Source of the DNA: Cetorhinus maximus
Lineage: Eukaryota
Assembly (NCBI RefSeq): GCF_964194155.1
Contig: NC_135901.1
Location: forward strand, 27,218,001-27,282,000
Reading direction: 5' to 3'
DNA length: 64,000 bases
Part shown: in pieces, positions 562 to 59,159 of the stretch
How positions within the stretch are numbered: position 1 is the first letter of the stretch
Layout: every line of letters begins with the position of its first letter
Notes under the pieces: generated by a model
Database searches by the model: none
Told to the model about the DNA's origin: nothing
What the model saw: the letters and a program-made list of their open reading frames with translations, nothing else
Translations under genes and position numbers: made by a program

Positions 562-1373
562 GATTCTCAAGAATTGCAGATGATACGAAATTGGAAACGT
601 TGTCAACTGTGAAGAGGATAGTCTCGAACTTCAAGAGGACATAGACATGTTAGTGGATTGGGCAGATGTGGTAGATGAAGTTCAATGCAGAGAACTGTGA
701 GGTGATTTATTTTGGCAGGAAGGATAAGGAGAGACAGTATAAAATAAAGGCAGAAACTCTAAAGAAGGTGCAGGACCAGAGGGACCTCGGTGTATATGTA
801 CATACGTCATTGAAGATAGCAGGGCATGTTGAGAGCGCAGTTGATCAAGCATATCGTACTTTAGGCTTTATTAAGAAAGGCATTGAGTACAAGAGTAAGG
901 AGACACTATAAGACACGAGTAAGGCCTCATCTGGAGTACTGTATCCAGTTTTGGGCACCATACTTGAGGAAGGATGTGAAGGCATTGGAGCGAGTACAGA
1001 GGAGATTCACAAGAATGATTCCAGGGATAATGAACTGTAGCTATGAGGATAGACTGGAGAGGTTGGGACTGTTTTCCTTGGAGAAAAGAAGGCTGAGAGG
1101 AGACTTGATAGAGATATTCAAGATCCAGAGGGGTATGAACAGGGTAAATAGTGAGAAACTGTTTCCACTCAAGAAAACACAAGAACTGGAGGGCACTGAT
1201 TCAAAACAATTGTCAAAAGGAGTAAACCGTGATGTGAGGAGAAACTTGTTCACCCAGAGAGTGGTTGGAGTCTGGAATGAACTTCCTGAGAGGGTGGTGC
1301 AGGCAGGTTCAATCGATGTGTTCAAAAGGGAATTGGATTGCTATCTGAAAAGAAAGAATGTGCAAGGTTATGG
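562..1373 (+). mobile_element. CR1-type LINE, end of RT to C-terminus of ORF2; its 3' tail resumes at ~2360-2465 after an LTR insertion
   Basis: ADDTKL-like motif near 577, MKFNAENCEV, QRDLGVYV, VRPHLEYCIQFWAPY and LGLFSLEKRRLRGDLIE spread over broken frames. Confidence 0.9.
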
Positions 1374-2359
1374 TGTAAAGAAAATATCTTTTTTTCCTAA
1401 TTTTACTGTGGGATGCTTTAAAGCAGGCTTATGGGGGCTGTGTGTGTGACTAATTTCATCAAACTGCAGACAGTCAGACTGCAAGGTTTAAATCATCAAA
1501 GGGGTTAGGTGTAAAACAGGCATTTGAAATGGAGATGGGTAAGCTAGGATGAAGTCCCAGCAGATACAGTGTGAATGGAATTTGTATTTAGAGATGAGTT
1601 GAGAGGTTGTTTGATTTTCAAAGGGACATGATGAGATGTTTTCCAACTGGCAAGATAAGTAAGGCAAAGTTATTAAGTTTATTTTTTCCCGAAAGTGCTG
1701 GACATAAGGACAACATGAAAGATTTTTATATTTTGGCAAAAGTAACTTCCAAAGAAAGGGTGAAACAATGGGATTTACAGATCAAAATGGAGGAAATATA
1801 TTAACAGAGAGATGGGAAGCTGTATGGGGAGTGGCCATGTGAGATCTTGACTGTGTAAAACAGACTTGTGAAGAAGCAGCCTCTGGTCACCCCAAAGAAG
1901 TGCTTGCATTCCTGAGTGCAAGGTTGTTTAGAAGCCTTGAAATTCCATTGTCAAGGGAGAGGGAGAAAGAAGCTGTGAAATACCTCCCTTATAGCAACAG
2001 TGTATGCTTGTGGTAATATTGCTGGATGTTTGATACATGAAGAATCAATTTGGACATTTGCCTCAAAGAGGTGCGTAGCTGGGAGTCTAGTTAAGTAGAA
2101 ATCTTGTGGGAGCTGTTATCAGGCTAAATGTAACTGTGTAACTGTCGTCTTGTGTGTTTAAGTTTTCTTTTCTTTTGTTAATAAATGTTTTGATTTAATC
2201 TTTAAAATCCCTAAAGCTGGTAGTGGACTCTTTACTTCTGACTTCAGTGCACAAACCTTCTTGTAATAAATACAAATTGCAAAATCGTTCTAATAGCTTG
2301 GCCAAGTTTCTCTTTGGGATTTGGTCAATCTGGCAAATGCCACCTACCATATCATAACA
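1374..2359 (+). mobile_element. Solo LTR (986 bp) inserted in a CR1 tail
   Basis: TG...CA termini; 4-bp TSD ATGG at 1370-1373 and 2360-2363; AATAAA near 2180 and 2265; removing it rejoins the CR1 3' end. Confidence 0.85.
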
Positions 2360-3132
2360 ATGGGGATAAGACAGGGGAGTGGGACTAGGCAGAATGCGCT
2401 TTCAGAGAGCCAGTGCAGACTCGATGGGCCAAATCCTTCTGCACCATAAGGATTATGTGATTCTGTGAATAATACCAGAATTGAGAGCATTTTACCCTTA
2501 AGAAAGGCTGGGGCTGCTTTTCTCTAGAAAAAAGACTGAAGGGTGACCTTATGGAAGTCTTTAAGATGATGAAGGGGATCAATAATCCAATAGGGATTTC
2601 ATGAGAAACCTCTTTACCCAGCGAGTGGCGGGAATGTGGAACTCATTACCACAGTGAGTGGTTGAGGTGAACAGCATGAATACATTTAAGGGGAAGCTAG
2701 ATACATACATGAGGGAGAAAGGAATAGAAGGATATGCTGATGGGGGGAGATGAAGAGGGGTGGGTGGAGGCACATGTGGAGAATAAATACTGACAGAAAC
2801 CAATTGAGCCAATTGGCCTGGCCCTGTGCTGTAGACTCAATGGAACAGAGACAAATGTATTTATTTTAGATCTACCTGTAGTGGTAGGAAAAACACTATT
2901 TACTATCCAGGATAAAATAAATGTATTTCATCAGCTTTTGCGAATCATTTCAGTGGAAATGTGCACTCCCAGGCACAAAGAGCATCAGCCACTGGAAGCA
3001 AAGTCATGAGACCGGTCAGTCCAGCAGAAAGAAACTCTCCGAACCTCCCACTTCACCAAGTGTCAGAATGAACATGGTTCAGTCCTGGATGTGATTAACA
3101 GCAGCAATAACAGCAGAATCCAACCCCTGGAA

Positions 3133-3807
3133 TCACTTGTGAACTCGCTGGTGTCTCAGCTGGTGGGCTAACTGAGTGAATGTCTTTCCACACTCAGAGC
3201 AGATGAATGGCCTCTCCCCAGTGTGAACTCGCTGATGTGTCTGCATGTGGGATAACTGAGTGAATCCCTTACCACAATCGGAGCAGGTGAATGGCCACTC
3301 TCCATTGTGAACTTGCTGATGTGTCCGCAGGTAGGATGACCGAGTGAAACCCTTCCCACACTCAGAGCATGTGAATGGCCTCACCCCTGTGTGAACTCGC
3401 TGATGCCTCAGCAGGTTGGATGAATCAGTGAATCCCTTCCCACACACAGAGCAGGTGAATGGCCGCTCCCCGGTGTGAACTCGCTGGTGTGTCTGGAGGT
3501 GGGATAACTGAGTGAATCCCTTCCCACACTCAGAGCAGGTGAATGGCCATTCTCCGCTGTGAACTTGTTGGTGTGTCAACAGGTGTGAAGACCGAGTGAA
3601 TCCCTTCCCACACTCAATGCAGGTGAATGGCCTCTCCCCAGTGTGAACTCGCTGGTGTGCCAGCAGATCGGATGGATTAGTGAATCCCTTCCCACAGTCA
3701 AAGCAGCTGAACGGCCTCTCCCCAGTGTGATAGCGACGATGAGTTTCCAGCTCAGATGGGGACCGGAATCCCTTCCCACAATCCCCACATTTCCACCGTT
3801 TCTCCGT
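3133..3807 (-). CDS. C2H2 zinc-finger array A, 8 fingers; the family start ATG is ACG here (possible pseudogene)
   Basis: Frame is open from accACGgag (3807) through [10 protein letters not shown]... to HQRVHK-TGA; the ORF track shows only the part from a TTG at 3579. Confidence 0.7.
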
Positions 3808-7070: not shown

Positions 7071-7748
7071 ATGGAGAAACGGTGGAAATGTGGGGACTGT
7101 GGGATGGGATTCAAAGCCCCGTCAGATCTGGAAACTCATCGACGCATACACACCGGAGAGAGGCCGTTCACCTGCTTTGTGTGTGGGAAGGGATTTATTA
7201 AGTCATCCAACCTGAAGCTACACCAGCGAGTTCACAGCGCAGAGAGGCCATACACCTGCTCCATGTGTGGGAAGGGATTCATTGATTCATCCACCCTGCA
7301 GAAACACCAGCGAGTTCACACCGGGGAGAGGCCATTCACCTGCTCTGAGTGTGGGAAGGGATTCACTCAGTCATCCCACCTACAGACACACCAGAGAGTA
7401 CACAGTGGAGAGAGGCCGTTCACCTGCTCTGACTGTGGAAAGGGATTCACTCAGTCATCCCTGCTGCAGATACACCAGCGAGTTCACAATGGAGAGAAGC
7501 CATTCTGCTGCTCTGCATGTGGGAAGAGATTCACTAATTCATCCAACTTGCAGAGACACAAGCGAGTTCACACCGGGGAGAAGCCATTCACCTGCTCTGA
7601 GTGTGGGAAGGGATTTACTCAGTCAGTGCACCTGCAGACACACCAGCGAGTTCACACTGGGGAGAGGCCATTCACCTGCTCTGTGTGTGGGAAGGGATTC
7701 ATTTGTTCATCGGAGCTGCTGAGACACCATGGCAGTCACACCGATTAG
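7071..7748 (+). CDS. C2H2 zinc-finger protein B, 8 fingers
   Basis: [10 protein letters not shown] start (aacATGg), eight CxxC-12-HxxxH units with TGERP linkers; acceptor TTTACAG at 6713. Confidence 0.85.
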
Positions 7749-13709: not shown

Positions 13710-14384
13710 TCACTTGTGAACTCGCTGGTATCTCCGCAGGCTGGATAAATGAACAAATCCCTTCCCACATACAGAGCAGGTGAATGGCCGCTCCCCAGTG
13801 TGAATTCTCCGGTGTTTCTGTAGGTGGGATAACTGAGTGAATCCTTTCCCACACTCAGAGCAGATGAATGGTCTCTCCCCGGTGTGAAGTCGCTGGTGTG
13901 TCAGCAGACTCGATGTGTCAGCGAATCCCTTCCCACACTCAGAGCAGGTGAACGGCCTTTCCCCAGTGTGAAATCGCTGGTGTGTCTGCAGGCTGGATAA
14001 CTGACTGAATTTGTTCCCACACACAGAACAGCTAAACGGCCTCTCTCCAGTGTGAATTCGCTGGTGTGTCAGTAGGTTGGGTGACTGAGTGAATCCCTTC
14101 CCACACTCAGAACACGTGAACGGCCTCTCCCCGGTGTGAACGCGCTGATGTGTCCACAGGTGGGATGACCCAGTGAATCCTTTCCCACACTCAGAGCAGG
14201 TGAATGGTCTCTCCCCGGTGTGAACCCGCTGGTGCTTCAGCAGGTGGGATGACCGAGTGAATCCCTTCCCACATTCGGAGCAGGTGAAAGGCCTCTCCCC
14301 AGTGTGAATGCGACGATGAATTTCCAGTTCAGATGGGATTCGGTAGCACTTCTCACAGTCTCCACATTGCCATGGTTTCTCCAT
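13710..14384 (-). CDS. C2H2 zinc-finger protein C, 8 fingers (last one His>Tyr)
   Basis: [10 protein letters not shown] start at 14384, TGERP linkers; acceptor at 14742; exon-1 donor at 15701. Confidence 0.85.
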
Positions 14385-15385: not shown

Positions 15386-15701
15386 ATAATGAAAATGTAG
15401 ACAGCGCGCAGTCATGACCTGGAACTTGCTGCCTAAGGGGTGGTGGAAGCAGAGAAGATCAATAATTTAAAAGTGAAATTGGATGAACACTTGAAGGAAA
15501 CTTCTGGGAGAGAGAATGGAGATATTGAGGGTGAAGGAGACTGACTGGATTGCTCTCCAGAGAGTTGGCACAGACTCGAGTTGCTGAATGGAGTCCTTCT
15601 GTGCCATAATGACTCTATGACTGGAAATATATAATAACAGCATTTTATTACAAGACTAGAAAAGAAATGGAAAGGGGGAGAAAAGAAAGTGTTTTACTCA
15701 C

Positions 15702-16478: not shown

Positions 16479-17234
16479 ATGGAGAAACCATGGAAATGTG
16501 CAGACTGTGGGAAAGCATTCAGGTTCCCATGTCAGCTGGAAACCCATCGACACAGTCACACCGGTGAGAGGCCATTCACCTGCTCGGAGTGTGGGCAGGG
16601 ATTCACTCAGCGATGCAACCTGCTGAGACATCAGCGAGTTCACACGGGGGACAGGCCGTTCAACTGCTCTCAGTGTGGTGAGGGATTCAGTGATTTGTCC
16701 ACCCTGCTGTACCACCAGCAACTTCACACTGAGAGGCCATTTACTTGCTCAGAGTGTGGGAAGGGATTCAATCGGTCAGCCCATCTACTGAGACACCAGC
16801 AGTTTCATACTGGGAAGAGGCCATTCACCTGCTTGGAGTGTGGGAAGGGATTCATTCAGTCATCCAGCCTGCTGGCACACCAACGAGTTCACACTGGTGA
16901 GAGGCCATTCATCTGCTCTGAGTGTGGAATGGGATTCACTCAGTCATCCAGCCTGCTAAAACACCAGCGTGTTCACAACGGGGAGCGAGCATTCACCTGC
17001 TCTAAGTGTGGGAAGGGATTCACTGATTCATCCAACCTGCTGCGACACCAGCGAGTCCACACTGGGGAGAGGCCATTCACCTGCTCAGAGTGTGGGAAGG
17101 GATTCACTCAGTCGTCCAGCCTGTTTACCCACCAGCGACTTCACAGCGGAGAGAGGCCATTCCTCTGCCCCATTTGTGGGAAGGGATTCAATCGATTATC
17201 CAACCTGCGGAAGCACCAGCAAGTTCACAAGTGA
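16479..17234 (+). CDS. C2H2 zinc-finger protein D, 9 fingers
   Basis: [10 protein letters not shown] start, nine fingers; the normal acceptor of the finger exon is deleted (junction ~16302). Confidence 0.75.
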
Positions 17235-23751: not shown

Positions 23752-24593
23752 CTAATCAGTGTGACTGTCATGGTGTGTCAGCAGCTCGGATGAACAAGTG
23801 AATCTCTTCCCACACTCAGAGCCTGTGAACGGCCTCTCCCTCGTGTGAACTCGCTGGTGTCTCAGCAGGGTGGATGGATCACTGAATCCCTTCCCACACA
23901 GAGAGCAGGTGAATGGCCTCTCCCCAGAGTGAACTCGCTGGTGTTTCTGCAGGTCGGATGACTGAGTGAAACTCTTCCCACACTTGGAGCAGGGGAACGG
24001 CCTCTCCCCAGTGTGAACTCGCTGGTGTGTCTGCAGGGTGGATGACCGAGTGAATCCCTTCCCACACACATAACATATGAATGGCCTCTCCCCAGTGTGA
24101 ACTCGCTGGTGTGTCTGCAGGTCGTAAGACCGAGTGAATCTCTTTCCACATTCAGAACAGACAAGCCAGTCCCTGGTGTGAACTCGCTGGTGTGTCAGCA
24201 GGTAGAATGACCGAGCGAATCCCTTCCCACACTCAGAGCAGGTGAATGGCCTCTCCCCGCTGTGAACTCGCTTGTGCATCAGCAGGAGGGATGATTCACT
24301 AAATTCCTCCCCACACTCAGAGCAGGTGAATAGTCTCTCCCAGTGTGAACTCGCTGGTGTCTCCGCAGCTGGGATGTATTCCTGAATTCCTTCCCACATT
24401 CAGAACATGCGAACGGTCTCTCCCCAGTGTGAACTTGCTGATATGTCTGCAGGTGAGATGACTGAGTGAATCCCTTCCCACACTCAGAGCAGATGAAAGG
24501 CCTCTCCCCAGTGTGAATGCGTCGATGAGTTTCCAACACAGACGGGGTTTTGAATGCCTTCCCACAGTCCCCACATTTCCACGGTTTCTCCAT
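23752..24593 (-). pseudogene. C2H2 zinc-finger gene E, 10 fingers, one frameshift after finger 3
   Basis: [10 protein letters not shown] at 24593; linker G run is one base short (24339-24341), splitting ORFs 24279..24593 and 23752..24399; could be a homopolymer error. Confidence 0.7.
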
Positions 24594-25509
24594 GATGCGT
24601 GTGTCCTTGTGTCTCTCCAGGTTCTACGATTAGTTGAAGCTTCGTCCTCACACAGAACACGTGTAAGGTCTCTCGCTGCTGTGAATGGTGTGATGTTTTT
24701 CTCAAGCTGAGGAACTGGTTAAAGCTCTTTCCACAGTCAGTGCACTGGAACACTCTCACTCGGGTATATGTGTCTCGGTGCTTTTCCAGTCACGCTGATG
24801 CTTAAAACCTTTTGAAGCAGACAGAACAGACAAACATTTCTCCTTCTAGATTCAAAGGCTGATCATATTCAGGTCCCGATGAGTCGACTGAGTCTGTCAG
24901 ATCTTGACGTGATGTTTGGTTTGAGATTGCTGTCTGCAAATCCTCCCCTTCTAATATCCTGCTAAAGGAATTTACAAAAGTCATTATTGTCAGTATAGGA
25001 TAGAAATTCAGAACAGACAATTCTAATTTGTAACGAACATTCTTTCCTCTCTCATTCCCCAAAAGCAGTAAATCTCCATGCCACACACTCTCACTCCATT
25101 CTCACTCTGCTGTATCTAATATACTCCCAATAGTACTGCACTAAAAATGTGTATAATACACAGTTCACTATTACATGATAAGAGATACATGGTGCAGTGG
25201 GGAAGAACTTTATTTCAACAGCCCGTGATGATGACCTGGAACCCACTGCCGATGAGGGTGGTGGTTCCAGAGACAATCAATCATTTCAGAATGAAATTGA
25301 ATTGACACTTGAAGGAAATGGTACTGGGACTGACTGGATCACTCTACAGAGAGTCAGTATGGACTTGAGTTGTCAAATGGACTCCTGTGTCATAATGACT
25401 CTATCACTGGAAATATATTAGGTAGCTACAGTACTGTCCTATAAGACTAGAAGGATAACAAACGCACTTTAGTACAAAACTATAAATAATATATCTAAAG
25501 TGTCCCCCA

Positions 25510-28907: not shown

Positions 28908-29918
28908 ATGGAGAAACCGTGGAAATGTGGGGACTGTGGGAAGGGATTTCGGGCCCCCTCTGATCTGGAGATTCATCGACGCCGTCACACTGGGGAGAGG
29001 CCGTTCACCTGCTCCGTGTGCAAGAAGGGATTCAGTCAATCATCCAGCCTGCTGCAGCACCATGTCACTCACACCAATGAGAGACCTTTTAAATGCTCTG
29101 ACTGTGGGAGTGCCTTCAAAAGGTCTCATGATCTGACGGTCCACCAGCACATTCACACTGAGGAGAGATCATTCAGCTGCTCTCACTGTGGGAAGGCATT
29201 TGGAACATCCTCCAAACTGCTGATACACCAGCGAGTTCACTCTGGGGATAGGCCATTCACCTGCTCCATTTGTAGAAAGGGATTCACTCAGTCAAGCACC
29301 CTGTGGACACACAAGCGAGTTCATACCGGGCAGAAGCCGTTCACCTGCTCTGAGTGTGGGAAGGGATTCAGTGATTCATCACATCTGCAGAGACACTGGC
29401 GAGTACATTCTGGGGAGCGGCCGTTCTCCTGCTCTGAATGTGGAAAGGGATTTACTCAGATATCCAACCTGCAGATCCACCAGCGAGTTCACTCTGGGGA
29501 GAGGCCATTCACGTGCTCTGTGTGTGGAAAGAGATTCACTCAGTTATCCAACCTGCAGATCCACCAGCGAGTTCACACCGGGGAGAGGCCATTCACCTGC
29601 TGTGTGTGTGGAAAGGGATTCAGTCATTCCTACACACTGCAGAAACACAAGTGGGATCACACTGGGGAGAAGCCATTCACCTGCTCTGAGTGTGGGAAGG
29701 GATTCAGCGATTCATCCACACTGCAAACACATAAGCGAGTTCACACAGGGGAGAGGCCATTCACTTGCTCCTTGTGTGAGAAGAGATTCACTCAGTTATC
29801 CAACCTGCTGACACACCAGCGAGTTCACACTGGAGAGAGACCGTTCACCTGCTCTGAGTGTGGAAAGAGATTCACTCAGTCATCGCACCTGCAGAGACAC
29901 CAGCGAGTTGACAGGTGA
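28908..29918 (+). CDS. C2H2 zinc-finger protein F, 12 fingers (last lacks the final His)
   Basis: accATGg [10 protein letters not shown]; acceptor at 28577; upstream exons ending 27590 and at 27664-27713. Confidence 0.88.
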   Translation: MEKPWKCGDCGKGFRAPSDLEIHRRRHTGERPFTCSVCKKGFSQSSSLLQHHVTHTNERPFKCSDCGSAFKRSHDLTVHQHIHTEERSFSCSHCGKAFGTSSKLLIHQRVHSGDRPFTCSICRKGFTQSSTLWTHKRVHTGQKPFTCSECGKGFSDSSHLQRHWRVHSGERPFSCSECGKGFTQISNLQIHQRVHSGERPFTCSVCGKRFTQLSNLQIHQRVHTGERPFTCCVCGKGFSHSYTLQKHKWDHTGEKPFTCSECGKGFSDSSTLQTHKRVHTGERPFTCSLCEKRFTQLSNLLTHQRVHTGERPFTCSECGKRFTQSSHLQRHQRVDR

Positions 29919-37804: not shown

Positions 37805-39205
37805 TCAGTCCTTGATGTGATTAACAGCAGCAATAACAGCACAATCCAACTCCTGTAATCCCTTGTGAACTCGCTGGTGCCTCAGCAGGCTGGATAAATG
37901 AGTGAATCCCTTCCCACACATAGAGCAGTTGAACGGCCTCTCCCCGGTGTGAACTCGCTGGTGTGTCAGCAGGGTGGATGAAACAGTAAATCCCTTCCCA
38001 CACTCGGAACAGGTGAAGGGTCTCTCCCCGGTATGAACTGGCTTGTGTTTTTTAAGGTCGGATGAATTACTGAATCCTTTCCCACACTTGAAGCAGGTGA
38101 ATGGCCTCTCCCCGGTGTGAACTCTCTGGTGTCTCAGCATATTGGATGAATCAGTGAATCCCATCCCACACTCGGAGCAGGTGAACGGCCTCTCCCCGGT
38201 GTGAACTCGCTGGTGTGTCTGCAGGTGGGTTGAATTACTGAATCCCTTCCCACAATCGATGCAGGTGAACAGCCTCTCCCCAGTGTGAACTCTCTGATGC
38301 CTCAGCAGGCTGGATGAATCACTGAATCCTTTCCCACATTCGGAGCAGGAGAACGGCCTCTCTCTGGTGTGAATTCGCTGGTGTGTCAGCAGAGCGGATG
38401 AATGAGTGAATCCCTTCCTACACTCGGGGCAGGTAAATGGCCTCTCCCCGATGTGAACTCGCTGGTGTGTCAGCAGGGTGGATGAAACAGTAAATCCCTT
38501 CCCACACTCGGAACAAGTGAAGGGTCTCTCCCCGGTATGAACTGGCTTGTGTTTTTTAAGGTCGGATGAATTACTGAATCCTTTCCCACACTTGAAGCAG
38601 GTGAATGGCCTCTCCCCGGTGTGAACTCTCTGGTGTCTCAGCATATTGGATGAATCAGTGAATCCCATCCCACACTCGGAGCAGGTGAACGGCCTCTCCC
38701 CGGTGTGAACTCGCTGGTGTGTCTGCAGGTGGGTTGAATTACTGAATCCCTTCCCACAATCGATGCAGGTGAACAGCCTCTCCCCAGTGTGAACTCTCTG
38801 ATGCCTCAGCAGGCTGGATGAATCACTGAATCCTTTCCCACATTCGGAGCAGGAGAACGGCCTCTCTCTGGTGTGAATTCGCTGGTGTGTCAGCAGAGCG
38901 GATGAATGAGTGAATCCCTTCCTACACTCGGGGCAGGTAAATGGCCTCTCCCCGATGTGAACTCGCTGGTGTCTCAGCAGGTTGGATGAATCACTGAATC
39001 CCTTCCCACACTCGGAGCAGGAGAACGGCCTCTCCCCGGTGTGAACTTGCTGGTGTCTCAGTAGCGTAGATGAATGAGTGAATCCCTTCCCACACACAGA
39101 GCAGGTGATTGGCCTCTCCCCAGTGTGACTGCGTCGATGAATCTCCAACTCAGATCGGGATTTGAATCCCTTCCCACAGTCCCCACATTTCCACGGTTTC
39201 TCCAT
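37805..39205 (-). CDS. C2H2 zinc-finger protein G, 16 fingers, with C-terminal stop-loss extension
   Basis: accATGg [10 protein letters not shown] at 39205; sixteen fingers; acceptor near 39562; exon-1 donor at 40723. Confidence 0.88.
37948..38971. repeat. 504-bp (6-finger) tandem duplication inside gene G
   Basis: Sequence from 37951 recurs at 38455; only one difference noticed by eye (~38012 vs ~38516). Confidence 0.92.
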
Positions 39206-48863: not shown

Positions 48864-49496
48864 ATGGAGAAACCGTGGAAATGTGGGGACTGGAGATTCA
48901 TCAATGCAGCCACACTGGGGAGAGGCCATTCACTTGCTTTGTGTATGGGAAGGGATTCAGAGATTTATACACCCTGTGGTCACATAAGCGAGTTCACACT
49001 GGGGAGAGGCCATTTACCTGCTCCATGTGTGGTAAGCAATTCACTCAGTCATCCATCCTTCGGAGACACCATGTCACTCACACCAATGAGAGACCCTGTA
49101 AATGCTCTGATTGTGGCAGTGGCTTCAAAAGTGCTGCAGTTCTGAGGGTCCACCAGCGCATTCACACTGAGGAGAGACCGTTCAGCTGTTCTCGCTGTGC
49201 GATGAGATTTAGTACGTCATCCAATCTGGGGACACACCAGCGAGTTTACACTGGGGAGAGGCCATTCACCTGCTGCGAGTGTGGGAAGGGATTCAGTAAT
49301 TCATGTAACTTGTTGGCACACCAACGAGTTCAGGCCGTTCACCTGCTCCATGTGTGGGAAGGGATTTATTCGATTATCCCACCTGCTGCAACGTCAGCGA
49401 GTTCACACTGGGGAGAAGCTGTTCACCTGCTCCGTGTGTGGGAAGGTATTCACTCAGTCACCACACCTGCTGAGAGACCAGCGAGTTCATAATTGA
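48864..49496 (+). pseudogene. Frameshifted C2H2 zinc-finger pseudogene I
   Basis: MEKPWKCGD then a deletion/frameshift; fingers spread over three frames; second deletion near 49332. Confidence 0.85.
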
Positions 49497-52494: not shown

Positions 52495-52654
52495 AAGGGG
52501 GTTTGAAGACCCGGAAATAAAAGGGGCTTGTGCATACACTGACCTGGAGGTAAAGGGATTTGTGTATAAACTGGCCCAGAGATAAAGGGGTTTGTGTATA
52601 AACTGGCCCGGAGATAAAGGGTCTTGCGTATGCACGAACCCAGAAATAAAGGGG
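52495..52654. repeat. Short ~32-bp minisatellite related to 45113-45500
   Basis: About five units of TAAAGGGGTTTGTGTATAAACTGGCCCAGAGA. Confidence 0.75.
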
Positions 52655-53497
52655 CCTAACCCTAACCCTAATCCCTAACCCCTAACCTTAACCCTAAACC
52701 TAACCATACCCCTAAATCTAACAATACCCTTAAGCCTAAACACAACCGTAAACCTAACCCTAAGCCTAACCCTAACCCTAACCCTAAACATAACCATAAC
52801 CTTAAACCTAACCATAACCCTAAACCTAAACCTAACCATAACCCTAAACAAAACCCTAAACCTAAGCCTAACCATAAACCTAATTCCTAACAATAACCCA
52901 AACCCTAAACTTAACTCTAACCCGAACCCTCACTATAAACCTAACCATAACCCTAAACCTAACCCTAACCCTATCCACAACCCTGAACCGAACCCGAACG
53001 TTAACCATAATCCTAGACCTAATCATAACCCTAAACCTAGCCATGACCTAGCCTTAACCCTAAACCTAACCATAACCCTAAACCTAACCATGAACCAAAC
53101 CATAACCCCAACCCTAACCCTAAACCTAGCTGAACCGTAACACTAATCCTAACCGTAAATCTAACCCTAAAACTAGCCCTAACCCTAAACCAAACCATAA
53201 CCCTAAACCTAACCATGAACCTAACCATAACCCTAAACCTAACCGTAACCCTAAACCTAACCATAACATTAACCCTAAACCTAACCATAGCCCTAAACCT
53301 AACCCTAAAGCTAACCATAACCCTACCCTTAACCATAACCCTAAACACAACCCTAACCTTAACCCTAAACCTAGCCATAACCCTAAACCTAACACTAAAC
53401 CTTACCATAACCCTAAACCTAACTCTAAACCTAACCATAGTGCCTAACCTAACCATAACACTAATCCTAACACTGAACCCAACACTAACCCTAACCC
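52655..53497. repeat. Degenerate interstitial telomeric array, (CCCTAA)n on the + strand
   Basis: About 140 hexamers of CCCTAA, ACCTAA, CCATAA and other variants. Confidence 0.92.
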
Positions 53498-53874
53498 AGA
53501 ATATACACTAACCTGTAAATAAACCTAATGCTAACCGGGGATCCCAGAGCTTCTCCTGAATCACGTGGTGCCTTGTAGATTGTGGACAGACTTTGCAGAT
53601 TCGGCACCTTCCAAACCCGTGACCACTCCGACCCGGAAGGACAAGGGCAGTAGATGCACCACCACCTGCAAGTTCCCCTCCAAGCCACTCACCATTCGGA
53701 CTCAGATCCATATCACCATTCCTTCACTGTTACCGGGTCAAAACCCTGGAACACCCTTCCCAATATTTCCCCACATTATGCTCCAACTGCAAATGTTCTC
53801 CCACTCACTTAACCTGCCTATATCTTTTTGCAGACTCTCTAGCTCTTCTGGACAATTTACAAAGTCCCTCAAAC

Positions 53875-54759: not shown

Positions 54760-55182
54760 TGTACTTTGTGTCAGGGTGGGGTTACTGTGCCCCCCAACCC
54801 CCACTTTCCATCCCAGTCCCAGGAGTTTGGAGACTGGGCTCCGGATGAGTAATGACGGCCGCAGCTCCCACAATCGCCCGCGCTGCGGAAACCTCTCTAT
54901 CCGCCGCGCGGGCGGGCAGCCCGGGACAGCGCATGTGCCGAGTCTGCCGCACAGCTGCGCATGTGCGGCTCCTGCCTGGTGGTCGCATGAAGGCCGCGCG
55001 CTCATTGACCTCCAGTTTTTCCCGTGTCCGCGAGCCTGGCCTGCAGACTGGAACCCGAGGACGTCACCGCGGAGCAGAGTGATTCCTATTGGCTGATTCA
55101 GGCAGGGTTCCGTTGTAGACGTCACAACGCGGAAGTTGGACAATGAGCTTCAGACTAAAACTTCCTCCTCTGGGCAACATCT
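54760..55182. promoter_or_regulatory. Bidirectional promoter plus first exons, arm C (-) / arm B (+), upstream of gene K
   Basis: 55020-55330 nearly identical to 15987-16300; NRF1-like and CRE-like sites; mini-exon at 55251-55300. Confidence 0.75.
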
Positions 55183-55980
55183 GTGAGGAAATCAATGTTT
55201 CCCCCTTTCCATTTCTTTTCTCATTCTGGGGGGAAATTGTTGACTTGCAGGAACTGAAGGGAAAGGAAGTGAATCCAGGGAGGGTGCAGACTCTGGAAAG
55301 GTTGGCCCAGGTCTCTCCCTCTCTCTCTCTCTTAAAGACATTGACATCCTTTGCTCCCTCAGATTGACACATTTATTTGTCTGGCTAAAAGGATGGTCTC
55401 TTTCCTAATGTTCACAATTAAAGGGGTGGTTTCCCCAGGAGATGGTTGACATTGAAGGGGACAACTTCAGGGTGATTTACTGTCCTATATTTTCAGAGAT
55501 TGCTCCTTATTTTACCTTTTGTCCCGTATTTCTAGGCCAGCCTGTGGGAAACTGATCCCAGGAGTCTCCAGGGTGAGTTTGAGTGATTTGAGTGGGACGG
55601 CAAGTGGGTGAGTCGGCCAGCAGAGAGATGATGATGTTGTGACTGAACAAGATAAGTTGTAAGTTTTAGTTGGTTTTAAATCCTACCCTCCCACTATTAT
55701 TGTCTCAAGACCCCTCCTCCCCATCACCTCTCATGTTGAAACACAAACACCCGCCCTCAACCCTCTCTCATGGTCACCAGCATTCCACCACCACCCTCCC
55801 CTGGTCCCAAGGTTGAAGTGTCCCTTCTTTTATTTCATAAGAGTGCTGCCCCTGGACAATACAGTAATAGAAAACTTTGAGATGTCTAATGTTGTGATAG
55901 GGGACATTTTAGCATGTTATTTATGGTTCTGTAGTTAAGTTCATTTATTCTTGTTTCTAGTTTTGCTGAAAAAAGAGACA

Positions 55981-56014
55981 TATCAAAGCTTTTCATCCTG
56001 CACTCATCAGGACA
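55981..56014 (-). ncRNA. Minimal type I hammerhead ribozyme motif
   Basis: UGUC-CUGAUGA-GU-GCAGG-AU-GAA-AAGCUU-U-GAUA: intact core boxes, palindromic stem III, stem I UGUC/GAUA. Confidence 0.6.
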
Positions 56015-56123
56015 CTTCGCAAGAATATCTGTACCTATCAGAGTTCACTTGCCAACCAATCAGCACTCTCTTCACATACAGAATAAATTGTTGTTTTCCC
56101 CTTATATTTGTCTTTTTGCAAAA

Positions 56124-56157
56124 TGTCCTGATGAGTGCAAAATGAAAACCTTCAACA
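56124..56157 (+). ncRNA. Minimal hammerhead ribozyme motif, partly decayed
   Basis: UGUC-CUGAUGA-GU-GCAAA-AU-GAA-AACCUU-C-AACA: core intact, mismatches in stems I and III. Confidence 0.5.
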
Positions 56158-57122
56158 TGTCTTTTTTCAGCAATATTCAAGTCTTGTACTACCAAATGAC
56201 TATTTCTAGTTTTGTAATATAGTACTGCAACTATGTTATTTATTTCTGGTCATATATTCATTAAAAACACAGAAGGAGCCAATTTGGCAACTCGAGCCCA
56301 TGCCAACTCTCTGTGGAGCAATCCAATCAGTCCCATTCCCCCTCTATATCCCCATTCCTGTGCTAGCTTATTTCCTTCAAGCGCCCTTCCAATTTCATTT
56401 TGAAATCATTGATCGTCTCTGCTTTCATCACCCTCGTAGGCAGTGAGTTCCAGGTCATCACAACTCGCTGCTGAAATACAATTCTCCCTCACACCCCATG
56501 TGTCTCTGATTATGTAATGGAGTACTGTACATTTTAAGTACAGTATGATTGGGTGTATACTGGGTAGATTAGATTTAGAATGGAGAGAGTGTAGCAGAGT
56601 GAGAATACAGGGACTGTGTGTGGGATGGAGATTTACAGTTTTTGGGGAACAAGAGAGGGTACAGTGTGCTATAAGAGTGTGCTGTAGAAATTAGAATTGT
56701 CTGTTCTGAATTTATACTCTGGACTGATAATAATGATTTTTTTAAACTCCTTTTACAGGATATTATAAGTAGAGGATTTGCAGACAGAAATCTCAAACCA
56801 AACTCCACGTCATGATCTGACAGAATCACTCGATTCTCTGGGACCTGAATATTATTGGCCTTTGAATCTAGAAGGAGAAATGTTTGTCTGTTCTGTCTTC
56901 TTCAAAAGGTTTTAAGCCTCAGTGTGACTGGAAAAGCACCGAGACACACACACCCGAGTGAGTGTTTCCAGTGCACTGACTTTGGAAAGAGCTTTAACCA
57001 GTTAAACAGCCTGAAAGAAACATCGCACCATTCACTGTGAGGAGAGACATTATACACGTTCTGTGTGTGGACAAGGCTGCAACTGATTGTCGGACCTGGA
57101 GATACACAAGGACACCCGCACC

Positions 57123-58889
57123 ATGGAGAAACCGTGGAGATGTGGGGACTGTGGGAAGGGATTCAAATACCCATCTCAGCTGGAAGCTCATCGACGCAGT
57201 CACACTGGGGAAAGGCCATTCATCTGTTCTGTGTGTGGGAAGGGATTCACTCATTCATCCACCCTGCGGAGGCACCAGCAAATTCACACTGGGAAGTGGC
57301 CATTTGCCTGCTCTGAGTGTGGGAACAGATTCAGACAGTTATCCAGCCTGCAGTCACACCAGCGATTTCACACTGGGGAGAAGATGCCATTCGTCTGCTC
57401 TGTGTGTGCGAAAGGATTCACCCACTCATCCAACCTGTTGAAACACCAGCGAATTCACACTGGGGAGAGGCCGTTCACCTGCTCTGAATGTGGGAAGGGA
57501 TTCAGTAATTCATCCGACCTGCAGAAACACAAGCGAGTTCACACCGGGGAGAGGCCGTTCTCCTGCTATGAGTGTGGGAAGGGATTCAGTAACTCGTTCA
57601 ACCTTCTGCGACACCAGCGAGTACACACTGGGGCGAGGCCATTCGCCTGCTCCGAGTGTGGGAAGGGATTCAGTCAGTTATCCAACCTGCAGACACACGA
57701 GCGAGTTCACACCAGGGAGAGGCCGTTCACCTCTGAGTGTGGGAAGAGATTCCGTAATTCATCAGACCTGCAGAAACACAAGCGAGTTCACACTGGGGAG
57801 AGGCCGTTCACCTGTTCTGAATGTGGGAAGGGATTCAGTAACTCATCCGACCTTCAGAAACACATGCGAGTTCACACAGAAGAGAGGCCGTTAACCTGCT
57901 CTGAGTGTGGGAAGGGATTCAATCATTCATCAGACCTGCAGAGACACATGCGTGTTCACACTGGGGAGAGGCCATTCACCTGCTCTGAGTGTGGGAAGGG
58001 ATTCAGTCAGTTATCCAACCTGCAGACACACCAGCGAATTCACACCAGGGAAAGGCTGTTCACCTGCTCTGAGTGTGGAAAGGGATTCAGTGATTCATCA
58101 GACCTGCATATACACAAGGGAGTTCACACTGGGGAGAGGCCATTCACCTGCTTGCAGTGTGGGAAGGGATTCGTTGATTCATCAAACCTACTGCGACACC
58201 AGCGAGTTCACACTGGGGAGAGACCGTTCACCTGCTTGGATTGTAAGAAGGGATTCAGTCATTCATCCGACTTGCAGAAACACATGCGAGTTCACACTGG
58301 GGAGAGGCCATTCACCTGCTCTGAGTGTGGAAAGGGATTCACTCAGTTATCCAACCTGCGGACACACCAGCGAATTCACACCAGGGAGAAGCCGTTCACC
58401 TGCTCTGAGTGTGGGAAGGGTTTCAATGATTCATCAGACCTGCATAAGCACAAGGGAGTTCACACTGGGGAGAGGCCGTTCACCTGCTCTGACTGTGGGA
58501 AGGGTTTCAGTGATTCATCAGACCTGCAAAAACACAAGGGAGTTCACAATGGGGAGAGGCTGTTCTCCTGCTTTCAGTGTGGGAAGGGATTCAGTGATTC
58601 ATCCAACATGCTGCGACATGAACGAATTCACACTGGGGAGAGACCGTTCACCTGCTCTGATTGTGGAAAGGGATTCACACAGTCATCCGACCTGCAGAAA
58701 CACAAGCGGGTTCACACTGGGGAGAGGCCGTTCACCTGCTCTGAGTGTGGGAAAGGATTCACTCAGTTACCTAACCTGCGGACACACCAGCGAATTCACA
58801 CCAGGGAGAGGCCATTCACCTGCTCTGAGTGTGGGAAGGGATTCACACATTCACCCCACTTGCTAAGACACCAGCGAGTTCATAAGTGA
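57123..58889 (+). CDS. C2H2 zinc-finger protein K, 21 fingers (finger 8 lacks its first Cys)
   Basis: accATGg MEKPWRCGDC, 588-aa open array; acceptor at 56758. Confidence 0.9.
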   Translation: MEKPWRCGDCGKGFKYPSQLEAHRRSHTGERPFICSVCGKGFTHSSTLRRHQQIHTGKWPFACSECGNRFRQLSSLQSHQRFHTGEKMPFVCSVCAKGFTHSSNLLKHQRIHTGERPFTCSECGKGFSNSSDLQKHKRVHTGERPFSCYECGKGFSNSFNLLRHQRVHTGARPFACSECGKGFSQLSNLQTHERVHTRERPFTSECGKRFRNSSDLQKHKRVHTGERPFTCSECGKGFSNSSDLQKHMRVHTEERPLTCSECGKGFNHSSDLQRHMRVHTGERPFTCSECGKGFSQLSNLQTHQRIHTRERLFTCSECGKGFSDSSDLHIHKGVHTGERPFTCLQCGKGFVDSSNLLRHQRVHTGERPFTCLDCKKGFSHSSDLQKHMRVHTGERPFTCSECGKGFTQLSNLRTHQRIHTREKPFTCSECGKGFNDSSDLHKHKGVHTGERPFTCSDCGKGFSDSSDLQKHKGVHNGERLFSCFQCGKGFSDSSNMLRHERIHTGERPFTCSDCGKGFTQSSDLQKHKRVHTGERPFTCSECGKGFTQLPNLRTHQRIHTRERPFTCSECGKGFTHSPHLLRHQRVHK

Positions 58890-59159
58890 TTCCAGGGGTT
58901 GGATTTTGCTGTTATTGCTGCCGTTAATCACATCCAGGACTGAAACATGTTCATTCTGACACTTGGTGAAGTGGGAGGGTCGGAGGGTTTCTTTCTGCTG
59001 GACTGGCCGGTCTCACGACTTTGCTTCCAGTGGGCTGATGCTCTTTGAGCCTGGGAGTGCACATTTCCACTGAAATGATCCACAAAAGCTGATGAAGGAC
59101 ATTTATTTTATCCTGGACAGTACATAGTGTTTTTCCTACCACTACTGGATCTAAAATAA

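Follow-up and report, generated by a model that had tools for sequence, protein, structure and literature searches.

Three dead zinc fingers ahead of a likely linker-derived start codon in a large C2H2 gene family of the shark Cetorhinus maximus

The sequence ahead of the reading frame of gene K in Cetorhinus maximus is probably a fossil, no longer translated, of what were fingers 1-3 in an ancestral C2H2 gene of sharks: inherited stops closed the old frame, and an ATG at a linker glycine likely starts proteins that consist of fingers only. Gene K lies in the window, the whole stretch of 64,000 nt that was analysed (C24:27218001-27282000), which contained about a dozen C2H2 array genes plus fragments in both orientations. 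Nine MEKPW-type sites were found in the window, with ATG in eight and ACG in one (Table 1), and translation is likely to start at MEKPW, judging by the sequence.

Gene K and its copies on chromosome C24

Chromosome C24 (65 Mb; genome, 4.0 Gb) is dense in C2H2 genes. Exact-pattern searches of the genome gave 474 matches for Met-EKPWKC, 209 for Gly-EKPWKC, the form of the type B subfamily, and 0 for a control; as only exact patterns were counted, 474 and 209 are lower bounds. Among the first 100 matches listed for each form, 96 of the Met form and 99 of the Gly form were located on C24. In 40 C24 tiles of 10 kb, placed blind, 23 finger-4 starts were detected, 22 of which fell in the 21 tiles up to 28 Mb. 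Sixteen were similar to type A, the type of K (11 with Met), six were similar to the type B described below, and one was unclear. By rough extrapolation, the true copy number is likely in the low thousands. Hundreds of related copies on one chromosome are what characterizes a lineage-specific clustered ZNF expansion; positive selection on residues that contact DNA and binding to transposons are further marks of that class. The nearest named proteins to the window arrays were from sharks and rays, and a 60-residue segment of a protein labelled Cetorhinus maximus matched the genome at 100%. A few copies of both types lay off C24, on C22 (~10.6, 29.3-29.8, and 38.2-38.9 Mb) and at C10:89004229.

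Some finger genes were arranged head to head, in the window at 15658(-)/16227(+) and 27052(-)/27673(+) and also at L080, L140, and L160. Both first exons of a pair share their conserved terminal sequence and donor and flank common CCAAT and CCGGAAG motifs; such a pair with a bidirectional promoter may be what was duplicated. A long degenerate (T/C)AACCC-like repeat, resembling telomeric sequence, was located between finger genes at window positions 52650-53510.

Table 1. Features of gene K, its window paralogues, and the intact relatives (window positions unless a chromosome or contig is named)
Feature	Position	Strand	Basis or remark
Exon 1 of K, 3' part (start not mapped), non-coding in finger frame	55120..55182	+	conserved end and donor; one RNA-like contig
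Intron GT...AG	55183..56758	+	sequence; acceptor TTTTACAG kept in paralogues; contig joint
Relic 40-codon spacer, start of exon 2, now probably untranslated leader	56759..56879	+	homologue of the spacer still open in C1, C6, C1920, and type B; neutral rate
Dead finger 1	56880..56951	+	stop 1 TAA 56913 (from Gln CAA); stop 2 TGA 56925 (from Trp TGG)
Dead finger 2	56966..57035	+	frameshifted both sides in K
Dead finger 3	57051..57119	+	stop 3 TGA 57084 (from Arg CGA); intact in type B
accATGg	57120..57126	+	putative start codon 57123-57125 at Gly position of finger 3-4 linker
Gene K reading frame	57123..58889	+	588 aa; 21 C2H2 fingers (21 zf-C2H2 stretches); no domain ahead of first finger
Paralogue A, ACG at start position	3805..3807	-	8 fingers still open behind
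Putative start codon, paralogue B	7071..7073	+	sequence
Putative start codon, paralogue C	14382..14384	-	sequence
Putative start codon, paralogue D	16479..16481	+	spacer and most of finger 1 replaced
Putative start codon, paralogue E	24591..24593	-	frame breaks after finger 5
Putative start codon, paralogue F	28908..28910	+	sequence
Putative start codon, paralogue G	39203..39205	-	sequence
Putative start codon, broken paralogue	48864..48866	+	deletion in finger 4
Intact relative C1	C1:215369419-215370588		12 fingers; open spacer and fingers 1-3
Intact relative C1920	C1920:51134-52501		open spacer and fingers 1-3
Intact relative C6	C6:78753081-78754106		open spacer and fingers 1-3

The K protein would be a Kruppel-type tandem C2H2 protein, with C-x2-C-x12-H-x3-H fingers joined by TGEKP-like linkers. 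The AG of a conserved splice acceptor (56757-56758) lies 364 nt ahead of the ATG of K. The exon-1 end and GT donor (exon end, 55182) were kept in 41 of 44 homologous stretches, and the donor read GTGAGT in 27 and GTGAGG in 11, together 38 of the 41 scored homologues. One contig of run X5 joined 55169 to 56759 via 13 letters matching the family exon-1 end; this joint, among the 12 matches listed of 429, was a single contig in one run from another organism, with RNA status guessed. Leader bins were covered in all four sequencing runs (RNA label guessed), and no RNA record for the window stretch was found.

The earlier note had read the leader as three fingers. The 243 nt from 56880 to 57123 agreed with this, whereas the peptide that it quoted was the family majority, not K itself. 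The fossil is also longer than reported there, with a further 121 nt (the 40-codon spacer) between the acceptor and finger 1. K has decayed on its own account, with Cys changed to Phe at 56898 and to Arg at 57057 and with single nucleotides lost near 56965 and gained near 57017. Its spliced leader contains three uORFs of 13, 2, and 11 codons, none of which has both Kozak bases. The first starts at ATG 55143 in exon 1, with its stop spanning the splice junction, and the last is opened by the former first codon of dead finger 1 (ATG 56880). An in-frame ATG in exon 1 was observed in only 7 of 41 copies, and the three leader stops would end that frame. At the putative start of K, the -3 A is provided by the linker Thr codon and the +4 G by the Glu codon.

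The 3' UTR right behind the stop (window 58887-59060 and 73 other non-redundant copies) was strongly conserved in types A and B and recognizable in C1, and is possibly an RNA element. It resembles a 17-residue tail (LQGLDSAV...) yet behaves as non-coding. A coding C-terminal tail was ruled out by extra stops and 14-nt deletions; third positions were no freer than others, and the stop is common to C1. A few copies without the stop extend into this conserved region (gene G).

Inherited stops, intact relatives, and the type B subfamily

The profile search gave 103 full-length hits, reduced to 89 distinct and 79 non-redundant sequences; removal of two intact relatives left 77 type A copies, a set enriched for the neighbourhood of K (27-31 Mb). 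Mean leader identity was 82%. Stop 1 was present in 53/76, stop 2 in 72/77, stop 3 in 70/76, and ATG in 65/77 copies. No leader was open (0/77), and every copy had at least one of the three stops (77/77). All 15 positions at which the earlier note had placed stops at the same codons of paralogues were indeed stop codons in the context that it described, that of paralogue E at 24632 being TAA. The accATGg start was likewise confirmed at F 28908, G 39205(-), and K 57123, and the strong Kozak context held for the family, with -3 A and +4 G in 61 of the 65 ATG copies. These common stops are a matter of ordinary descent, not recoding.

The ancestral state was read from three intact off-C24 copies. 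Those on C1 and C1920 were found by a genome search with the leader read through its stops, and that on C6 by a pattern with Trp at stop 2. In C1, C1920, and C6, respectively, the stop-1 codon was CAA, AAG, and AAA, the stop-2 codon TGG in all, the stop-3 codon CGA, GGC, and CGG, and the start-position codon GGA, GGC, and GTG. The earlier suggestion that the TGA stops arose by CpG decay was thus compatible with stop 3 (Arg CGA) but was ruled out for stop 2, the ancestral codon being TGG in all three intact genes; stop 1 arose by CAA to TAA instead. In the genome, the exact stop-2 pattern had TGA at 279 sites and TGG at 7, the latter being the three intact genes and four otherwise broken C24 copies. 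The proposed origin of the ATG at a linker Gly was upheld by GGA in C1, GGC in C1920, and GGG in type B. Gly to Met takes two base changes, and the GTG of C6 is possibly the middle step. Fingers 1-2 were constrained between C1 and C1920 (pN 0.115, pS 0.73).

Directly upstream of the intact finger exon of C1920, a 60-bp minisatellite of ~830 copies (51 kb; C1920:1-51078) was observed, and the codons of this finger exon were unusually GC-rich. The C1 gene is near exons at C1:215397000-215412500, whose translation we take to be ATP synthase alpha; these are a possible synteny anchor for an orthologue search in other fishes. A protein search for C1 orthologues gave 17 hits, 16 generic ones and one catshark model. 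A representative protein search for C1 relatives was swamped by generic finger proteins, an Atlas search returned generic ZNF clusters only, and exact protein look-ups found 0/10 in the collection.

Type B, which begins with MEGK, has the acceptor and spacer in common with type A and lacks fingers 1-2. Its start is the spacer Met aligned with Met-36 of C1, and its finger 3 is kept, with Arg or Gln and a linker that is mostly Gly. Type B would have arrived at a short N-terminus differently, through loss of fingers 1-2 by deletion and a start at a spacer Met, and two different trimmings of one ancestor appear to have each founded a large subfamily. Within type B, the subclade L031-L057 has gained another ATG in this linker, where Glu has become Met at the following codon (HNGMKPW), and L075 and L078 (C24 tiles) are derivatives that also lack finger 3, so that the spacer Met runs straight into finger 4.

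In three trees, type A was one side of a branch (support 91/92, 95/94, and 93/86), in line with the single founder lineage that the earlier note had proposed, and types A and B were sister groups (95/94 and 99/97). The stops did not map to one branch: stop 1 and a finger-2 Cys-to-TGA stop arose later in separate subclades, the former marking a more recent clade (99/98) and one group besides, the latter another type A subclade. Stop 2, stop 3, and the ATG were distributed across basal type A lineages in the 79-row tree, with 6, 6, and 11 changes at fewest, mostly single reversals. L183/L185 kept Trp and had no ATG, and L120/L128 had Arg in place of stop 3 and ATT at the start position. With basal type A not resolved in the tree and mixed states in these copies, the three early changes may have come in more than one order. 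C6 was placed with type B at weak support (92/78), and a grouping beside type A was not rejected (p-AU 0.44).

The 13-letter protein junction, or off-frame traces of it, was detected in gene models of other sharks: Heterodontus (P0147, P0226, and P0274), Carcharodon (P0141), Scyliorhinus (P0133), Mustelus (P0059, as MGKPW), and Pristiophorus (P0040 and P0045). When alternative frames are read, the off-frame words of Heterodontus P0216 point to GA at stop 2, and those of P0274 and P0040 to T-x-A at stop 3. One catshark model keeps Trp at stop 2, and Heterodontus also has type B (P0181). The Met form was seen in 0 of the 9 ray and skate proteins looked at, a non-systematic sample. Since the same start occurs in gene models of other sharks, the linker-start event is likely older than the galeomorph/squalomorph split, which dates back over 200 million years. 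The models P0141, P0147, P0154, P0181, P0199, P0226, and P0274 (zinc finger protein 850/91/271-like) appear to be fused from neighbouring single genes of the family.

Selection on the leader and alternative explanations

Seven copies rearranged after finger 4 were dropped from the selection set, and 33 of the 70 left had at least five fingers in frame behind the start position (open copies). The leader evolves neutrally, and finger 4 is under purifying selection. The ratio of 0-fold to 4-fold changes in the leader was 0.95 (CI 0.70-1.36) in the 33 open copies and 1.08 (0.86-1.44) in the 70 copies, and the corresponding ratios in finger 4 were 0.41 (0.19-0.76) and 0.42 (0.25-0.65). The dN/dS of the leader, 0.63, was inside the range of a neutral simulation (0.55-0.84); coding constraint, which values of 0.6-0.7 might suggest, was therefore rejected as a method effect. 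A net frameshift in the leader was found in 21 of the 33 open copies, with 1.68 extra stops per 100 codons. Zinc ligands were kept at 77-85% in fingers 1-3 versus 100% in fingers 4-5, the latter figure being partly built in, as open copies have five fingers in frame by definition.

Indirect signs favour use of the putative start, with constraint setting in directly behind it: open copies had no changes in the codons K, W, C, D, and C there and none at the -3 A, with 5 and 4 changes at -2 and -1; the start-position codon of the three open copies without ATG was ATT twice and ACG once. Out-of-frame uORFs overlapping the ATG were found in 9/30 open versus 18/30 broken copies (Fisher p 0.037, relatedness not corrected), which also favours use of the ATG. 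Against its use, ATG retention did not differ significantly (30/33 open versus 35/44 broken, p 0.22). Within finger 4, codons 135, 136, 139, and 142 changed most.

The earlier note had the founder lose its N-terminus. A short spacer and three fingers are likely gone, but loss of an effector domain is not borne out by C1 and C6, which appear to have non-coding first exons and a start inside the finger exon. That a real effector exon (KRAB-, FiNZ-, SCAN-, or BTB-like) was lost from the founder when the stops arose is in our judgement unlikely. As in two-exon effector-ZNF genes, the acceptor of exon 2 falls within a codon (phase 2) with an open spacer behind it. Neither a spacer Met nor any other in-exon Met precedes the intact fingers 1-2 of C1920, and its upstream exon would lie beyond the contig, where the upstream 51 kb are one minisatellite; an older ancestor may for this reason have had a coding upstream exon. 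C6, however, retains the family promoter element and exon-1 donor, its inferred exon 1 has no in-frame ATG, and Met occurs at codons 0, 3, and 8 of its second exon. Likewise, the inferred first exon of C1 is out of frame, and Met is present at codons 8, 36, and 40. Among 72 ORFs upstream of C1 (at least 28 aa) compared with Pfam, there was no match to KRAB, SCAN, BTB, or SET, only weak reverse-transcriptase hits and one chance hit, and an ORF comparison with the upstream DNA of C6 and C1920 yielded repeats only. A weak search for homologues among longer proteins found none. No joint into the C1 finger exon was found among the joints listed for four runs (RNA label guessed), and two contigs ending at the likely exon-1 donor of C1 are a weak hint of its use. 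Since the first exons of C6 and C1 appear non-coding and no effector family was found upstream of C1, an effector exon was likely absent from the ancestor already, and type A would have lost only a spacer of 30-40 residues and three fingers. The claim that the products are finger-only fits with this, no in-frame coding exon having been seen upstream.

Selection might also have kept the leader as a translational brake, in which stop 2 turned the old Met-40 start into a uORF of 11-15 codons ~200 nt upstream and reinitiation at MEKPW gave low output from each of very many genes. Most open copies do have an 11- or 15-codon uORF at the finger-1 Met, retention of stop 2 (72/77) and stop 3 was at the 96th and 87th percentiles among non-CpG leader codons, and 4-fold change was lower in the leader (2.3, 31 sites) than in finger 4 (3.4, 9 sites). 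We nevertheless regard this brake as improbable: the uORF ATG was lost in 23/77 copies, the stops were kept no better than several ordinary leader codons (TTT 72/75, TCT 74/77), parts of the leader are gone in several copies (paralogue D and partial hits), and type B manages without it. Readthrough by UGA recoding, or RNA editing of the stops, with fingers 1-3 still made, is barely conceivable. Two of the three stops are TGA and occur in most copies, but the neutral codon-position pattern, the frequent frameshifts, the lost zinc ligands, and the lack of a single open leader in 77 copies all argue against it. Constraint on both sides of a stop, which programmed readthrough or recoded genes show, was not found, the leader being neutral and frameshifted. 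Finally, the whole array might be a decaying segmental repeat, with the leader marking a pseudogene founder and the open frames untranslated. This would account for the 37 of 70 unrearranged copies with fewer than five fingers in frame behind the ATG; it is very unlikely given the purifying selection on finger 4 across all 70 copies (0.42), the 588 open codons of K, the conserved promoter, donor, and acceptor, and RNA-like contigs of relatives that cover the leader and array (RNA status guessed).

In the fossil-leader account, which we prefer, the ancestor would already have had a non-coding first exon, with translation beginning at a Met of the spacer (codon 0-8, 36, or 40). Along the stem of type A, two base changes would have turned the linker Gly into Met, perhaps with the GTG seen in C6 as the intermediate, where the Kozak bases were already in place; Arg would have become TGA via CpG decay, and Trp would have become TGA as well. 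On the way to MEKPW, ribosomes would pass 1-5 uORFs, short and mostly weak, through leaky scanning or reinitiation. Tandem duplication would then have copied the whole unit of promoter, exon 1, intron, leader, array, and 3' UTR, so that the stops would be common by descent and persist because shark sequence changes slowly. Type A proteins probably recognize diverse DNA sequences and lack a fused repressor domain.

Comparison with known zinc-finger systems

Searches for an account of this leader or of these starts found none in a literature in which subscription journals were thinly covered, and the motifs MEKPW, HTMEKP, and MEGKST gave no literature match. Shark database entries named zinc finger protein 239/271/850-like or gastrula zinc finger protein XlCGF-like cover this family, and several begin with MEKPWKC or MEGK. 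These automatic names give no account of the leader, and many of the models splice or shift frame through it or fuse neighbours. To our knowledge, no KRAB- or FiNZ-like effector has been described in sharks. The available part of PMC10547256, in its supplement, puts sharks at 1,000-3,600 ZNF reading frames, with 3586 ZNF ORFs in S. canicula and 1851 in C. carcharias (supplementary file 2), and nothing on shark ZNFs was found in the part of PMC10380595 at hand.

Two sister subfamilies, with separate internal starts, appear to be finger-only, and the ancestral state is fixed by the three intact relatives; this makes it testable whether a large ZNF repertoire works without a fused repressor domain. 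The nested stops are neutral markers with which to date the expansion across sharks, and many shark gene models that are fused or frame-shifted would be put right by the conserved acceptor and starts. Going beyond this, we offer as a speculation, and a doubtful one, that sharks hold a repertoire of finger arrays without effectors on the scale of a chromosome, that trimming of the N-terminus founded it more than once, and that the dead fingers were kept as a uORF brake dosing each gene low. Such proteins would guard the genome against retroelements by occupancy or a shared partner, not by a fused domain of the KRAB or FiNZ type.

Start-codon shift is a known process, in which a downstream ATG takes over after upstream nonsense changes, by leaky scanning or by reinitiation after short uORFs. 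Unlike the general case, the shift here would have happened at the root of a family that numbers at least several hundred genes, and its ATG is in a TGEKP linker whose Thr and Glu codons give the Kozak bases; such a linker is one or two changes from a strong-context start.

Genes of the KRAB-ZNF class recruit TRIM28/SETDB1 and repress transposons. Their tetrapod (KZNF) clusters, as the accessible text of PMC10547256 describes them, consist of tandem Kruppel-type arrays in one last exon with rapid birth and death, and the shark family is like them in its tandem C2H2 arrays in one last exon, the spacer before the first finger, and the fast turnover of copies. It differs in that the protein begins with a finger, no upstream coding exon was found, and the leader consists of relic fingers. 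KRAB in an upstream in-frame exon, which defines KRAB-ZNF genes, was not observed: the K frame starts at the first live finger behind three stops, and no KRAB is present upstream of C1. KRAB-box families are among those lost in cartilaginous fishes, according to the portion of PMC8455134 available. The FiNZ-ZNF genes of cyprinid fish (zebrafish Chr 4q), in the same partial text of PMC10547256, are lineage-specific, with hundreds of copies on one chromosome and a two-exon layout, all of which applies to the shark family. Unlike the 28-residue acidic coding first exon given there for FiNZ-ZNF, shark exon 1 has an in-frame ATG in just those 7/41 copies, with the three inherited stops next, and is out of frame or without ATG in 34/41, FiNZ being taken here by its description. 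The shark case thus works like other clustered lineage-specific ZNF expansions and is outside both KRAB-ZNF and FiNZ-ZNF.
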